The position numbers and the translations under genes are program-made. This document shows, in pieces, positions 43,029-58,019 of a stretch of 64,000 nucleotides of DNA (the stretch's first letter is position 1; every line of letters starts with the position of its first letter). Under the pieces are notes generated by a model, which saw nothing but the letters and a program-made list of their open reading frames with translations, did not search any database and had not been told where the DNA came from. Source of the DNA: an uncultured bacterium (GTDB lineage: Bacteria; Bacillota_I; Bacilli_A; RFN20; CAG-826); NCBI GenBank assembly GCA_949291375.1, contig CASEVI010000002.1:40069-104068 (forward strand), given 5' to 3'.

Positions 43029-43051
43029 GTTCTAATTTTAAGAATTAAAAC
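43029..43051 (+). promoter_or_regulatory. Degenerate copy of the conserved palindromic box, about 96 nt upstream of the P1 start
   Basis: GTTCTAATTTTAAGAATTAAAAC compared with the consensus GTTCTAATTTTTAAGAAATAGAAC. Confidence 0.45.
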
Positions 43052-43146
43052 AACAGTAATTAGTCAACTAAAGGTTGTTAAACATTATTTAGATTTAAAA
43101 CATTAATGTTTTAAATCAATTTCATTTATTAGGAGATAAATTAAAA

Positions 43147-46100
43147 ATGAAAAAGAAAAATTTATTAGCCTTATCTGCTTTAGTCCTTTCTTTAGGTTTA
43201 ACAGTTTCTTCATGTGCTGGAGCTCAAGGAGAAAAAGGTGATACTGGAGACAAAGGTGATACAGGCGAAACAGGTCCTCAAGGTCCTCAAGGTCAAGCTG
43301 GTCAAGATGGTAAATCATTTGTTGATATTATCGTTAGAGATTGGAATGTCACTGGTGGAGAAATTAATCAAGACAAATATTTCGTCGAAATGGGTAAAAA
43401 AGAATCTGTTACTTTTACATTTACACCAGATAGTGAAGGTGCAGAAGTCGTTGTTAATATCGAAATTAATGGCGAAGTCGTCAATCCAGTATTAGAACTC
43501 GTTCCAGGTGAAGATGGAAAAGTTACATGGTCATATGAAGTTCCAGATAATATGGGTGGTCTTCAATTAACAGCTGCTACATTTACAACTGTTGATGACT
43601 ATGCTTTAGACCAACTTTATGTTTATTATTCAACATTAAGTGCTAATGATAACCAATTAGCTGCTTTTGAAAATGAAGACGGAACATGGACTGCTGATGC
43701 TGACCAAGTCAAAGGTGAATGGTTCAACAGTGATGTTGTTAAAACAGTTACAAGTGAAGCAGGTAAAATTGCTACTGAAGTTGCTAAATTAACAACTGCA
43801 GAAAATCCAAATCCAACAGCTACAGAAAAATTAGCAAAAGTTAATGAACTTTTACCAACTGCTGAAGAAGCTGTTAAAGCTGCTTATGATAAAGCTGTTA
43901 CAGAAGTTAAAGAAGCTGCTATTGAAGCTATCGAAGACTTATCAGATGAAGTTTCATCTGATAACTATAAAGATGCTGATAGAAAAGCAATCTTAGATGA
44001 AGGTAAAGCCGCTATTAATGCTGCTACTTCAATTGAAGATGTTACAACTCTTGTTAACAAAGTCGAAGTTGAAGATAAATTAGAATTAGGAACATATAAT
44101 GAATTATATTCAAGAAAAAATGCTGCTTTCGATAAAATCGAACAAGCTTTAGAAGATGCATATGAGTTAGTTCCTGAATTAGAAGATACTGAAGATCCAG
44201 ATTATGAAGAATTAAAAACTGCTTTATCAACCTGGAAGATTGATTTAGATACAGTTACTCCAAAAGCAACTGCTGATGAATACTTAACAAAAGTTAGTGC
44301 TGCTAAATCATTAGAAGAAATCCCAGTATACACTGAAGATAGTGCAACTGATGCAGAAGTCTCTTATAAAAAAGGTGATGTTGTTTTAGCTGTTGAAGGT
44401 GCTGATGCTGTTGCAGGAAGTGTTGAAGACTTAAAAGATACATTAGTCGCTAATATCCGTGCTTCTTATGAAAAAGAAGTTGATGATTCTAAAGCAATTT
44501 CAACAAGTTCAGCAAAAGAATCATTAAAAGGTGTTATCAACAATAGTATCGATACTTGGTTAACAGTTAATGAAGACAGTTCATTACTCCTTTATACCGA
44601 ATCAACATTAGCTTACGAAGATGAAGACAAGAAAGTAGTTACTGTTGCAGGTAGTGGTTTAGTTGGTTATATCGAAAATGTCATTGGTACAAAAGGAAAT
44701 GCTAACTATAACGCTGCTTTCCAAGCAGAAAGATTACAAAATGCTTTAGCTGGTGCTAAAACTGAATTAGCAGCTGCTATTAAAGCTGTCAAAGATGCTG
44801 ATAGTGATTATTCAAAAGCAATCTCATATTCAAAAGTTACTTCTGGCGACCACAAAGATAAATATTTAGTTAACAATCCAAAAATTGGTGTTAAAGATTA
44901 CGAAATCGCTAACCCATTTGTCAGCGAAGCAAATGAAGCAACAGATAAGAAATTCTATGCTGATACATTAACAAAAGGCACAGATGTTGGTGGAGTTACA
45001 GGAAATGAAACATATTCTGTTGATGATTACTACACCTCTTTATTCCCAGCAGATGGTTCATTACCAGCTGAATTAGAAGGTGCTGCAGATCAAGCAAATC
45101 CAGTCTTAGTTGTTAAAGAATTTATTGCTGATCAAAAAGAAAATATCAAAAATATTTATACAGATGCTGTTGAATTCTATATGGGTAAACAACAAGATGA
45201 ATTAAAACTCACAGAAGGCAAAACAGAAGATGATATTTTATTAACAGAATGGAATAAATTATTCTCTGATCCAATGAAAGCTGATGAAACATATACAATG
45301 TCAGATGTTTCTTCTGCTAGAAAAGGAATGGAAACAGCTAAAACATTATTATTTGATGCAACAGATGGATTATATACTAATGTTGAAGCATTATTAGATG
45401 CTAAAGCTGCTGAAGGCCAAGATGCTGATTGGGTTAATCAAGTCTATGTTAGAAGCGATGAAACAGGCGCAACATCAATTTCTGATTTAAGAAAACAATA
45501 TGAAACATTAAAAGAAAATGTTATCTTAGGAAAAGCTGATGAAAGTGATGTTGAAGACTTTGTTAAAGACTTAACAGACTTATATGAAGCTGATGTAGCT
45601 TCATATAAAGAAGATGCTGTCGCTAAATTAAGAGAAGATGTCCAAAATAGAAAATCTTCTTCAGATGGTAAATTAAGCGTTGCTCAAGTTAAATTAATGG
45701 AAAATAGATTAACTGAAGCAGAAGCTATTTTAGGAACAGATAAAGTTACTTCAGCTGGTACAACATATAAAGGCGATACAGTTACAAGTATTAATGACTG
45801 GTTCGCTGATGCTGAAACTTATGTAATTCCTGATAATGATGGCGAATTCTCACCATCAGGTGATTTAGGACAAAGCGCTACTGAAGAATGGTTTGATTTA
45901 CTTTCTAGAAGAGCAGCTCAATTAAGAGCTGTTGGTTCAGAAGTTTTAAAAGCTGGCCATGATACAAATGGTGTTATCCAAAAATTAGTTGGAGGAACTG
46001 GTTCAGGCGATTCATATAAAGCTGAAGGTTTTGGATATTGGAATACTATTCCTGCTGAATCAGAAAAAGTTACACTTACAATTGGTTTCAGAGATGAATT

Positions 46101-46746
46101 AGTATATAACTATCCAGGATTAATCGAAACATTAGGATTAAAAGGTGAATTAAATGATGAAAAACATTTAGTTTATGAAATCGATAGTGTTGCTGATGTA
46201 AATACATGGTATGAAGATGCTTCTAAAGTTCTTAACTTTGCTATTTCAACAAATAATGAAATTTGGAATCTAGCTAAAGATTATAGAGATGCATTCACTG
46301 CTCAACTTGATAGTCTTGTTGGTAAAACATTTGCAAAAGATGCAACAGCTGATAACGTAAAAACTCAATTAAATACTCAAATTGGTGCTATGTTCGCTGC
46401 ATTTGGTAAAACTAATGTAACTGATTTCATTGATAGTGTTAACTTTAAAACTGACACAAAAACAGTTGAATCAATCACTATCAAAGATGACTATTTAACA
46501 ACAGGCGGAATTATTAAATTAGGTAATTTCACTGCTATGAGTTATGACTTCAATAATGCTGAAAGCGATTATGCTGACGACAATGATGACCTCATTCATA
46601 TCTTAACCGTTTGTACTGGTAAACATAGTGATAGTACACTTAAGACTTATGATTTAACAACTTCATCAGGTCGTAGTGCATTATTAACTGCTGTTAAAGC
46701 TGAAATTGCAAAAGTTACAGGTACAACAACTTCTGGAAATAACTAA
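43147..46746 (+). CDS. Large surface lipoprotein P1 with a collagen-like N-terminus, member of the four-gene family (1199 aa)
   Basis: MKKKNLLALSALVLSLGLTVSSC has the lipobox LTVSSC. This is followed by (G-X-Y)10 (AQGEKGDTGDKGDTGETGPQGPQGQAGQDG), an Ig-like domain with the TFTFTP motif, and a long A/E/K/D/T-rich body. Confidence 0.85.
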   Translation: MKKKNLLALSALVLSLGLTVSSCAGAQGEKGDTGDKGDTGETGPQGPQGQAGQDGKSFVDIIVRDWNVTGGEINQDKYFVEMGKKESVTFTFTPDSEGAEVVVNIEINGEVVNPVLELVPGEDGKVTWSYEVPDNMGGLQLTAATFTTVDDYALDQLYVYYSTLSANDNQLAAFENEDGTWTADADQVKGEWFNSDVVKTVTSEAGKIATEVAKLTTAENPNPTATEKLAKVNELLPTAEEAVKAAYDKAVTEVKEAAIEAIEDLSDEVSSDNYKDADRKAILDEGKAAINAATSIEDVTTLVNKVEVEDKLELGTYNELYSRKNAAFDKIEQALEDAYELVPELEDTEDPDYEELKTALSTWKIDLDTVTPKATADEYLTKVSAAKSLEEIPVYTEDSATDAEVSYKKGDVVLAVEGADAVAGSVEDLKDTLVANIRASYEKEVDDSKAISTSSAKESLKGVINNSIDTWLTVNEDSSLLLYTESTLAYEDEDKKVVTVAGSGLVGYIENVIGTKGNANYNAAFQAERLQNALAGAKTELAAAIKAVKDADSDYSKAISYSKVTSGDHKDKYLVNNPKIGVKDYEIANPFVSEANEATDKKFYADTLTKGTDVGGVTGNETYSVDDYYTSLFPADGSLPAELEGAADQANPVLVVKEFIADQKENIKNIYTDAVEFYMGKQQDELKLTEGKTEDDILLTEWNKLFSDPMKADETYTMSDVSSARKGMETAKTLLFDATDGLYTNVEALLDAKAAEGQDADWVNQVYVRSDETGATSISDLRKQYETLKENVILGKADESDVEDFVKDLTDLYEADVASYKEDAVAKLREDVQNRKSSSDGKLSVAQVKLMENRLTEAEAILGTDKVTSAGTTYKGDTVTSINDWFADAETYVIPDNDGEFSPSGDLGQSATEEWFDLLSRRAAQLRAVGSEVLKAGHDTNGVIQKLVGGTGSGDSYKAEGFGYWNTIPAESEKVTLTIGFRDELVYNYPGLIETLGLKGELNDEKHLVYEIDSVADVNTWYEDASKVLNFAISTNNEIWNLAKDYRDAFTAQLDSLVGKTFAKDATADNVKTQLNTQIGAMFAAFGKTNVTDFIDSVNFKTDTKTVESITIKDDYLTTGGIIKLGNFTAMSYDFNNAESDYADDNDDLIHILTVCTGKHSDSTLKTYDLTTSSGRSALLTAVKAEIAKVTGTTTSGNN

Positions 46747-46786
46747 TTAAATTATCTATTAACTGAATATATAATTTAATCTATTT

Positions 46787-46816
46787 GATTAGGAGAGGGA
46801 ATTTCCTCTCCTAATC
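46787..46816 (+). terminator. Terminator of P1
   Basis: 12-bp stem GATTAGGAGAGG/CCTCTCCTAATC with loop GAATTT, then TTATTATC. The same stem occurs after P2. Confidence 0.6.
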
Positions 46817-57522: not shown

Positions 57523-57546
57523 GTTCTATTTCTTAAAAATTAGAAC
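57523..57546 (-). promoter_or_regulatory. Conserved palindromic box about 175 nt upstream of P3
   Basis: In gene orientation it reads GTTCTAATTTTTAAGAAATAGAAC, identical over 24 nt to the P4 box. Confidence 0.5.
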
Positions 57547-57655
57547 ATTTTTTCAAAAACAATAAAAAAATGGCAAAAAGTCGATAGAAGAGGCATTTCT
57601 GTCACTTTTTAAACACATTTTATTGGAATTAGAAAGTATTAGAGTTAATTAAGCA

Positions 57656-57686
57656 TTACGTAAGTCATCGCGTACGCGCGTACGCG
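57656..57686. repeat. GC-rich perfect palindromes TTACGTAA and CGCGTACGCGCGTACGCG in an AT-rich divergent intergenic region
   Basis: The 18-nt perfect palindrome has 14 of 18 G/C and strictly alternating pyrimidine-purine (Z-DNA-prone). It contains MluI-like (ACGCGT) and BsiWI-like (CGTACG) sites. Confidence 0.6.
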
Positions 57687-57995
57687 TAATTATTAAAGAT
57701 ATATTAATGAATCAATGCTGAAAGCGCTTTTTTGTTGCATTTTTTAGAAATGTTATTAGAATTAAGTTGCTTAAATGAAGTGCTTAATTCAACTAGATTA
57801 CTACTAAAACTAGAATTTAAGGCTTATTTAGGTCCTAATTAGTGACATTTTCTTGTAAAATTAATGATTTTTTTAAAAAAGTCTATCAATTGTAAAAGAA
57901 GTGTGCTAATGTATAGGTGTCGTTTTATCTAATAGCTACTTTTAGTTAATTTTTTGGTAGGAAGTCACTACCTAGTATTGACTTACCTATATGTG

Positions 57996-58019
57996 TTCTA
58001 ATTTTTAAGAAATAGAACA
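57996..58019 (+). promoter_or_regulatory. Conserved palindromic box about 100 nt upstream of P4
   Basis: GTTCTAATTTTTAAGAAATAGAAC. A second inverted repeat, GGTTTTAAAAA-GGTAG-TTTTTAAAACC, lies at about 58052-58078. Confidence 0.5.

Follow-up and report, generated by a model that had tools for sequence, protein, structure and literature searches.

A small number of pathogenic mycoplasmas are known for the programmed shuffling of their surface lipoprotein genes by site-specific DNA inversion. The vpma locus of Mycoplasma agalactiae and the vsp locus of M. bovis consist of complete lipoprotein genes with a conserved 5' untranslated region (UTR) and signal peptide; in vpma, an identical 21-bp site is located at −51 to −72 in the UTR, a unique promoter has been demonstrated, and the xer1 gene is adjacent (PMC2268961). 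The site of the vsa locus of M. pulmonis is located in coding sequence, and its silent genes have no promoter, ribosome-binding site (RBS) or 5' coding part; invertible promoters in the mpl system of M. penetrans and in Bacteroides are further systems for comparison (PMC2268961). Here, we describe a box of 24 nucleotides (nt), GTTCTAATTTTTAAGAAATAGAAC, found upstream of all four members (P1 to P4) of a lipoprotein gene family, always in the orientation of the gene, in a 64,000-nt stretch of DNA from an uncultured, gut-type bacterium of the Bacilli (GenBank assembly GCA_949291375.1, contig CASEVI010000002.1, positions 40,069 to 104,068 of the forward strand), hereafter called the window. As judged from a comparison with related loci, this box is probably the crossover site of a DNA-inverting recombinase, which re-links the genes and the DNA segments upstream of them.

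The four paralogs are characterized by near-identical N-termini (4/4), MKKKNLL(A/S)L(S/G)ALVLSLGLTVSSCAG, corresponding to a lipoprotein signal with the lipobox cysteine, followed by about 10 collagen-like GXY triplets behind the signal peptide. The match to the Pfam Collagen family was below threshold (23.7–25.4 bits, for a cut-off of 27.2 bits), and no other Pfam match was found. At their 5' ends, the genes have 190–300 nt in common at 75–90% identity. A protein search returned only about 39 family members, all derived from metagenomes or metagenome-assembled genomes (MAGs), and literature searches found no description of the family or of the box. P3 is identical to P0021, a protein of a 234-kb NCBI/ENA contig. 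Exact-match look-ups of the P3 and P4 proteins gave no record. The genes and their boxes are as follows:

43147–46746, + strand: P1, 1199-amino-acid (aa) lipoprotein, lipobox VSSC, about 10 collagen-like GXY repeats
49523–52648, − strand: P2, 1041-aa paralog
53911–57348, − strand: P3, 1145-aa paralog
58120–61035, + strand: P4, 971-aa paralog
43029–43051, + strand: box A (P1 slot), degenerate, GTTCTAATTTT-AAGAATTAAAAC, with the central T run short by 1 nt and the right arm TAGAAC changed to TAAAAC
52744–52767, − strand: box B (P2 slot), 23/24, GTTCTAATT-TTTAAG-AATTAGAAC, perfect 9-bp arms and a 6-bp asymmetric spacer
57523–57546, − strand: box C (P3 slot), canonical, 24/24
57995–58018, + strand: box D (P4 slot), canonical, 24/24

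In what follows, the gene-distal DNA of a box is called a slot, and the gene-proximal side corresponds to a gene-specific UTR type. Slot A is the leader, on the side of a zinc-ribbon gene; slot B is the DNA downstream of P3; slots C and D lie at opposite ends of the 448 bp that separate P3 from P4 (the CD segment); and slot E or E' is the DNA found beside a SLFN/HATPase_c_4 gene in relatives.

The locus works like vpma and vsp, and is their homologue by no test made here. Like them, it is a cluster of paralogous lipoprotein genes (four in this case) with a conserved 5' UTR and signal peptide, and a short, identical, gene-oriented site, here the 24-nt box, is present in the 5' UTR; in both cases, inversions between opposed copies re-link genes to upstream DNA, and direct copies could excise. 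However, vpma and vsp have an Xer1/Mbr tyrosine recombinase by the locus (xer1 being within the vpma locus), whereas none is linked here. There is no recognisable similarity between the proteins, as judged by Pfam scan and not by direct comparison with Vpma or Vsp, or between the sites; the host is an uncultured Bacilli MAG with the standard genetic code and not a Mycoplasma; the genes encode proteins of 970–1200 aa with a collagen-like stalk; the single promoter demonstrated in vpma is one that we infer here; and site D forms a geometric hub with a long conserved flank. Distinctive features of the locus are the host lineage, the large collagen-like proteins, the unlinked enzyme and the hub geometry.

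Other systems resemble the locus in part. In vsa (HvsR, vrs boxes), a single expression site is inverted with several silent lipoprotein genes, which recalls the hub-and-spoke logic considered below, but every gene is complete here, with an RBS and a signal peptide, and hvsR is linked to the vsa locus. Mpi, for the capsule promoters of Bacteroides, and RecV, for the switches of Clostridioides difficile, act in trans from elsewhere. A trans-acting recombinase is also proposed here, and the CD segment, like an invertible promoter, lies between perfect 24-bp inverted repeats and divergent genes; in contrast to invertible promoters, the box would also recombine with copies at least 5–6 kb away and thereby move whole genes. 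In the sap locus of Campylobacter fetus, a promoter segment lies between opposed surface-protein paralogs, and the RecA-dependent crossovers occur in about 600 bp of homology. The oppositely oriented surface-protein paralogs with conserved 5' ends are common to both loci, whereas the crossovers here map to the 24-nt box (slots B, D and E'), with one exception in the 5' coding region.

An earlier note on this stretch, made from its letters, had reported a gene-oriented 24-nt palindromic box about 100–175 nt ahead of every paralog, with a degenerate copy at P1, a perfect 9-bp inverted repeat at P2, and copies identical over 24/24 nt, with differing flanks, at P3 and P4. All of these observations were found again. 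The distance from the end of the box to the ATG is 95 nt for P1 and P2, 174 nt for P3 and 101 nt for P4 (4/4 paralogs, 95–174 nt), and the sequence distal to the box is unrelated among the four copies. The coordinates given in the note also held for P1 to P3, but the P4 copy, placed at 57996–58019, was off by one base. Overall, the arms of the box read GTTCTAATT and AAWTAGAAC and flank the asymmetric 6-bp sequence TTTAAG, and the homology between P1 and P2 (300 nt, 86%) starts within the box.

The box is present nowhere else in the window. One hundred dinucleotide shuffles gave no match, even with 3 mismatches allowed, and the pattern GTTCT-N14-AGAAC occurs exactly three times in the 64 kb, each time at a paralog; a chance origin of the box is therefore excluded. 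A search of 596 Gb of genomes (one genome per species) with a palindromic degenerate box pattern returned six loci, four of which were single matches in unrelated phyla. The other two were paralog loci of a sister MAG, 'uncultured Bacilli bacterium BRZ_RQ__bin105' (bin105), with one box about 100 nt upstream of the P4 orthologue and one at the orthologue of the P1 leader. There were 0 matches in metagenomes of the Joint Genome Institute (JGI) and 0 in viral contigs. A generic AT-rich repeat, which the note had named as a refutation, is ruled out by these results. Among 12 related loci, all of them metagenome contigs, the box was found upstream of each clustered paralog with 24/24 or 22–23/24 identities, with intergenic flanks that had diverged by 5–50% while the box was kept. 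Its left 15 nt are nearly invariant in these loci, and the right-arm variants (AAATAGAAC, AATTAGAAC, AATTAAAAC and TAATAGAAC) mostly track the UTR type. The orthologue of the degenerate box A is canonical (24/24) in locus L005, and is a full-length TAAAAC variant in L016 and L014. The box is private to the clustered members of this gene family.

Comparison of the related loci showed that, across strains, two or more different cassettes, composed of a UTR and its gene, occur at every slot, and that identity changes exactly at the box. Slot E' of L009 and L014 is 99.3% identical on the distal side of the box and 55% on the proximal side. The same was observed when slot D of the window was compared with that of L014 (94% distal, 49% proximal) or L010 (93% and 52%), and slot B of the window with that of L007 (85% and 53%). 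The converse case was found between P2 at slot B of the window and the gene at slot E' of L009, which have a 97.9% identical proximal side (the P2 UTR) and a 51% identical distal side. Flank B is joined to P2 in the window and to a cassette with a 1109-type UTR in L004 and in L007 to L013; slot C is joined to a P3-type gene in the window and in L010, and to a gene encoding 890–893 aa in L009, L014 and L023; and flank D is joined to P4 in the window, L009 and L023, and to a different gene in L010 and L014. The flank of slot B is given here with its position:

52768–52927, − strand: slot B flank, distal to box B, joined to differing cassettes across strains

The clearest exchange was observed between two near-identical strains, represented by L014 (sample ERZ16268260) and L023 (sample ERZ16268258). 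Between boxes E' and D, the two loci are collinear over 6.1 kb, and a P4-like gene (98.4% identical) is located to the left of E' in L014 and to the right of D in L023, in opposite orientation. In L014, E' joins the P4-like gene and D joins a cct-type gene; in L023, E' joins the cct-type gene and D the P4-like gene. The distal flanks of the same slot are 100% (E') and 99.3% (D) identical between the two loci. The proximal UTRs match when crossed, with 100% identity for the P4-like UTR (L014-E' versus L023-D) and 98.9% for the other one (L014-D versus L023-E'), whereas the uncrossed comparisons gave 31–40% identity. By sequence comparison, L014 and L023 are a reciprocal pair of isomers, related by the inversion of 6.1 kb between two boxes of opposite orientation. 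Moreover, box position 7 (T at E', A at D) remains with its slot in the two loci, which confines the crossover to the part of the box from position 8 to its right end.

The order in the window is slot A, box A (+), P1; then P2, box B (−); then P3, box C (−), the CD segment, box D (+) and P4. Inverting positions 52768–57994, between boxes B and D, would bring P2 to slot D and give the direct order of box C, P3, flank B, box and P4, and that direct order is present in bin105 (P3-like gene, flank B, box, P4-like gene) and in the L010 type. As read from these junctions, the window is one 5.2-kb B × D inversion away from the arrangement of its relatives. L014, with a P2-like gene at A, a P1-like gene at D and the small gene g127 still linked to P2, looks like a D × A inversion of the ground state, which is a weaker inference, the strains being about 85% identical. 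Finally, C is joined directly to an 890-type gene with a 1109-type UTR in L009, L014 and L023, and L010 has the order C, P3, B, box and 1109 with direct boxes; judging from the order of parts, the former arrangement looks like the product of an excision between direct sites of the latter.

Box D differs from the others in its orientation and in its flank. It alone is inverted relative to all other boxes in L009, L010/L016, L014 and L023, and, by geometry, every inversion from the ground state therefore involves it. In each of the four aligned strains, the CD segment separates two divergent paralogs, and it is in principle itself invertible. Its D-proximal part is more conserved than the rest: conservation of the D flank reaches back to about 57720 (an element of about 130–270 nt), the C half is about 50% invariant, and the coding genes of the four compared strains are about 90% identical. 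The features of this segment are:

57547–57994, unstranded: CD segment, 448 bp between the inverted boxes C and D, which form perfect 24-bp inverted repeats
57864–57994, + strand: D-proximal conserved non-coding element, 90–100% invariant in four strains, containing TGTGcTAATGT and TTGACT
57547–57576, − strand: promoter-like site TTGCCA-18-TGaAAAAAT, directly adjacent to box C and directed at P3; no other reasonable sigma-70-like site was seen

The D-proximal element had no Rfam match and no open reading frame (ORF) of at least 40 aa, and the CD segment as a whole had no Rfam match and no convincing small ORF. Box D and its invariant flank probably constitute an expression site, a recombination hub, or both, and the flank is a candidate promoter or leader, or a candidate accessory arm for the recombinase. 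Promoter scores were 8.5–10 for ordinary genes, 8–8.5 for the UTRs, 10 for slot C and 8 for slot D, a scoring that is non-discriminating at 27% GC; the four UTRs ranked lowest among the regions scored, and D showed no match to the consensus. In the middle of the CD segment, at 57669–57686, we also observed an 18-nt GC-rich palindrome, CGCGTACGCGCGTACGCG, which was flagged as terminator-like on the + strand and shows only small changes in the four strains; it may insulate the C-facing half from the D-facing half.

According to the mechanism that we propose, the box would be a core site composed of two 9-bp inverted arms and the 6-bp asymmetric spacer TTTAAG; every paralog has one box, which marks the 5' limit of its UTR. 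For tyrosine recombinases such as Xer, Cre and Fim, core sites consist of inverted arms around an asymmetric spacer. The 9-6-9 layout best fits a tyrosine recombinase, the putative enzyme here, and an asymmetric spacer would explain the fixed orientation of the box relative to the gene. Serine invertases of the Hin/Gin/Cin type use a 26-bp site with a 2-bp core and an enhancer within the invertible segment, and have the invertase gene adjacent. This type is less likely, as no gene with a Resolvase domain is found nearby and the 9-6-9 layout and the apparent excision fit a tyrosine enzyme better. The recombinase, presumably encoded elsewhere and acting in trans, would pair inverted boxes, and inversion between opposed boxes would swap which cassette of UTR and gene joins which slot (A to E). 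Box D would be the natural partner for every inversion and would mark the expression site or hub. If, as we suppose, only one slot bears a promoter and switching is frequent in the population, inversion would change which collagen-like surface lipoprotein is made; in the window, P4 at slot D would be the linked gene, and D–C (448 bp) and D–B (5.2 kb) inversions would be possible. Mutually exclusive expression of the paralogs, which the earlier note had raised, is plausible, via DNA inversion rather than repression.

Several observations weigh against a recombinase crossover site. Pfam scans of the larger ORFs detected no Phage_integrase, Resolvase or Recombinase domain in the window, in agreement with the statement of the note that it contains no recombinase, and in none of the related loci did the 10 kb or so around the paralogs contain a recombinase; small proteins of 174, 279, 110, 137 and 196 aa in these loci also had no recombinase domain. 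This is the chief weakness of the reading and the chief difference from the mycoplasma loci. Consensus scans found no convincing promoter at D, and the best site, at C, is present in this strain only, not being conserved in the others. In the L014/L023 pair, position 21 of the box (G/A) segregates uncleanly. The exchange at slot B of L004 has its crossover in the coding region for the signal peptide and collagen-like part, and not in the box: when positions 5990–6160 of L004 were compared with L007, the P4-like gene of bin105 was found to bear a 1109-type UTR. This junction may have arisen by homologous recombination or gene conversion, with the 5' ends of paralogs as partners, or else by chimeric assembly. 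In addition, all of the evidence comes from comparing strains or samples rather than from within one population, and six samples show one and the same L010-type order.

The earlier note had favoured an operator, at which a dimeric transcription factor co-regulates or cross-represses the paralogs, and the rearrangements would then be incidental. The dyad symmetry of the box, its fixed orientation and roughly fixed distance upstream of the genes, and its strict conservation in the absence of compensatory changes are consistent with such a role, and a recombinase site could double as an operator. However, we consider an operator decidedly unlikely as the explanation, and this reading received no direct support: homology breaks exactly at the box in several independent comparisons and in one reciprocal pair; the window has no transcription factor gene linked to the locus, and lacks the SLFN/HATPase_c_4 gene that lies beside slot E in relatives; stand-alone family members have no box; the extra inverted repeats that the note had connected with the box are unrelated hairpins (see below); and the box, at 95–174 nt from the ATG, has no convincing promoter beside it in 3/4 slots. 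The alternative named in the note, that of a site for a site-specific recombinase, fared better, with permuted linkages of slots and genes, a switch point in the box and one reciprocal inversion pair. That the box works in RNA, as a stem-loop at the 5' terminus or as a terminator, or else is no more than the inert boundary of a duplicated cassette, is in our view very improbable. A box hairpin of 6–10 bp can be folded in every UTR, and the P1/P2 homology has its 5' limit at the box, but the common TAAAAC variant breaks a G-C pair with no compensation, UTR types with real hairpins of differing sequence all have the identical box, and the reciprocal exchange seen in near-identical strains is left unexplained by an inert boundary.

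Homologous recombination of the RecA type, acting on the conserved paralog 5' ends as in C. fetus sap and with the box as just a part of the homology, would suit the 190–300 nt that the paralogs have in common at 75–90% identity and the L004 crossover in the coding region. It is nevertheless quite unlikely, since slots D, E' and B keep the UTR with its gene and switch at the 24-nt box and not in the longer 5' coding homology about 100 nt further on, and the recombining sites of L014 and L023 have only the box in common; the L004 junction itself is in a stretch nearly identical to both parents, and is possibly an assembly chimera. That the whole shuffling is an artefact of metagenome assembly across repeats appears scarcely credible. 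The comparison loci are indeed all metagenome contigs, and many of them stop about 250 nt or less from the 5' end of a paralog, but the repeat at the box junctions does not exceed 24 nt (13–24 nt), which is below the usual k-mers of assemblers and below read length, and no runs of N were present. The L010-type order, moreover, was obtained from six independent samples, and the L009 and L023 orders agree.

Within the preferred reading of the box as a recombinase crossover site, we also considered a hub-and-spoke shufflon, in which D and its 130–270-nt flank would be a complex attP-like site, with binding sites of the arm or accessory type, and the other boxes bare attB-like cores. The unlinked recombinase would then pair D only with a spoke, which would account for D as the sole opposite box, for the passage of every inferred inversion through D, and for the rarity of deletions between direct spokes. 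We regard this elaboration as unlikely; to our knowledge, no lipoprotein shufflon of this design is on record. If true, it would be located in a defence-gene island of uncultured, standard-code Bacilli, where it possibly varies a phage receptor. More generally, the presence of collagen-like lipoproteins amid defence genes suggests that their variation could bear on the evasion of phages or of host immunity. The same logic, built from unrelated parts in uncultured Bacilli for which metagenomes are the sole source, suggests that the strategy is more widespread in host-associated, lipoprotein-rich relatives of the Firmicutes than is apparent from cultured strains. The 24-nt box provides a concrete site for screening reads for switching, and, if the crossover reading holds, there are biological reasons to expect breaks or differences at these loci in MAGs of the lineage.

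Upstream of P1, the leader that constitutes slot A is as follows:

42277–43028, + strand: slot A leader, conserved in relatives, holding the two extra inverted repeats of the earlier note

The intergenic region between P1 and the zinc-ribbon gene is about 90% invariant over about 620 nt (42277–42900) in four strains, which equals or exceeds the conservation of the neighbouring genes, and contains several hairpins; the region could encode an RNA of an undescribed kind or be densely packed with regulatory sites. No Rfam family matched the P1 leader, the CD segment or the whole window, and a tmRNA match in the P1 leader was rejected as being at chance level (E-value of 0.71, 8 bits for a cut-off of 47 bits). 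In the earlier note, two further inverted repeats in this leader, at 42405–42430 (IR1) and 42634–42652 (IR2), were described as having the same half-site as the box. Both exist at these coordinates, but their kinship to the box did not hold, as the half-site is not kept and the order of the arms and their spacing differ. IR1 has its arms in reverse order (AGAAC...GTTCT) and reads AGAAT...GTTTT in L014; IR2 has a 5-nt spacer, and is TTGTCCTTG-TAT-CAAGGACAA in L014, via a compensatory change, with GCTCT in L016. Because the GTTCT half-site is lost in relatives and the change in IR2 is compensatory, IR1 and IR2 are hairpins of the leader and not relatives of the box. For GTTCT/AGAAC pairs at 0–30 nt spacing, chance expectation is about one per orientation across the window.

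Every UTR type of the paralogs exhibits a perfect hairpin of 11–12 bp, located 35–45 nt ahead of the ATG, whose position is shared and whose sequence is specific to the UTR type (GATTTAAAACA.., GGTTTTAAAAA.. and GGTTATTAAAAA..). These hairpins were observed in the window at 43092–43117 (+), 52678–52703 (−) and 58053–58079 (+), as well as at about 5795–5820 (−) in L009, and could act as an attenuator, a stabiliser or an insulator. The stand-alone members of the family (L015, L020, L021 and L022, downstream of miaA) are about 30–35% identical to P4 over the aligned part; these are single genes with an 850-nt leader carrying its own promoter-like site, TAGACA-17-TATCAT, and no box. No homology was found between the leader of this stand-alone locus and the D flank or the A leader.

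Relics of gene starts, composed of an RBS and ATGAAAAAGAAAAA, face away from the boxes at A (42997–42999, − strand) and B (52834–52878, + strand). That of flank B has its ATG at 52834 (+), encodes MKKKNEFIRWLSNK* and is preceded by a remnant of the 1109-type UTR. The slots appear to be the decayed 5' ends of former divergent paralogs. Moreover, flanks B and E/E' have the motif AAATACGATAAT..TC in common, 30–42 nt distal to the box (52790–52810 in the window, about 9835–9850 in L007 and about 285–300 in L009). In the window, this motif is palindromic (TACGAT-AATA-ATCGTA), and it could serve as a site with an accessory or regulatory function.

Eight contigs (L008, L009, L011, L012, L013, L015, L018 and L019) end near a paralog 5' end or a box, and these ends were not used as evidence; they could come from repeats, from mixed orientations, or from both. 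The closest relatives of P1 (99% identical, in L018 and L019) end inside the UTR, so that no junction was obtained.

GC content is 16–35% across 2-kb stretches of the window, for a genome at about 27% GC, and the standard genetic code is used in the window, as seen from 87 TGG tryptophan codons in long ORFs and from the stop codons (TAA 25, TAG 5 and TGA 1). Between P1 and P2, within the potentially invertible A–B segment, a 455-aa ORF (47400–48767) has no Pfam match and carries an HxHxDH motif similar to that of metallo-beta-lactamases (HFHKDHY). Around the paralog cluster, we observed genes of defence type, namely AAA_21/RloB (AbiEii-like), Fic, AAA_5 pairs, RnlA toxin, DUF4062 and SLFN/AlbA_2, at 36097–39419 and 26017–30265 in the window and at 1522–5573 in L010, the SLFN gene being found in L014 and L023. 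The cargo located between the boxes varies by strain, like a variable island.

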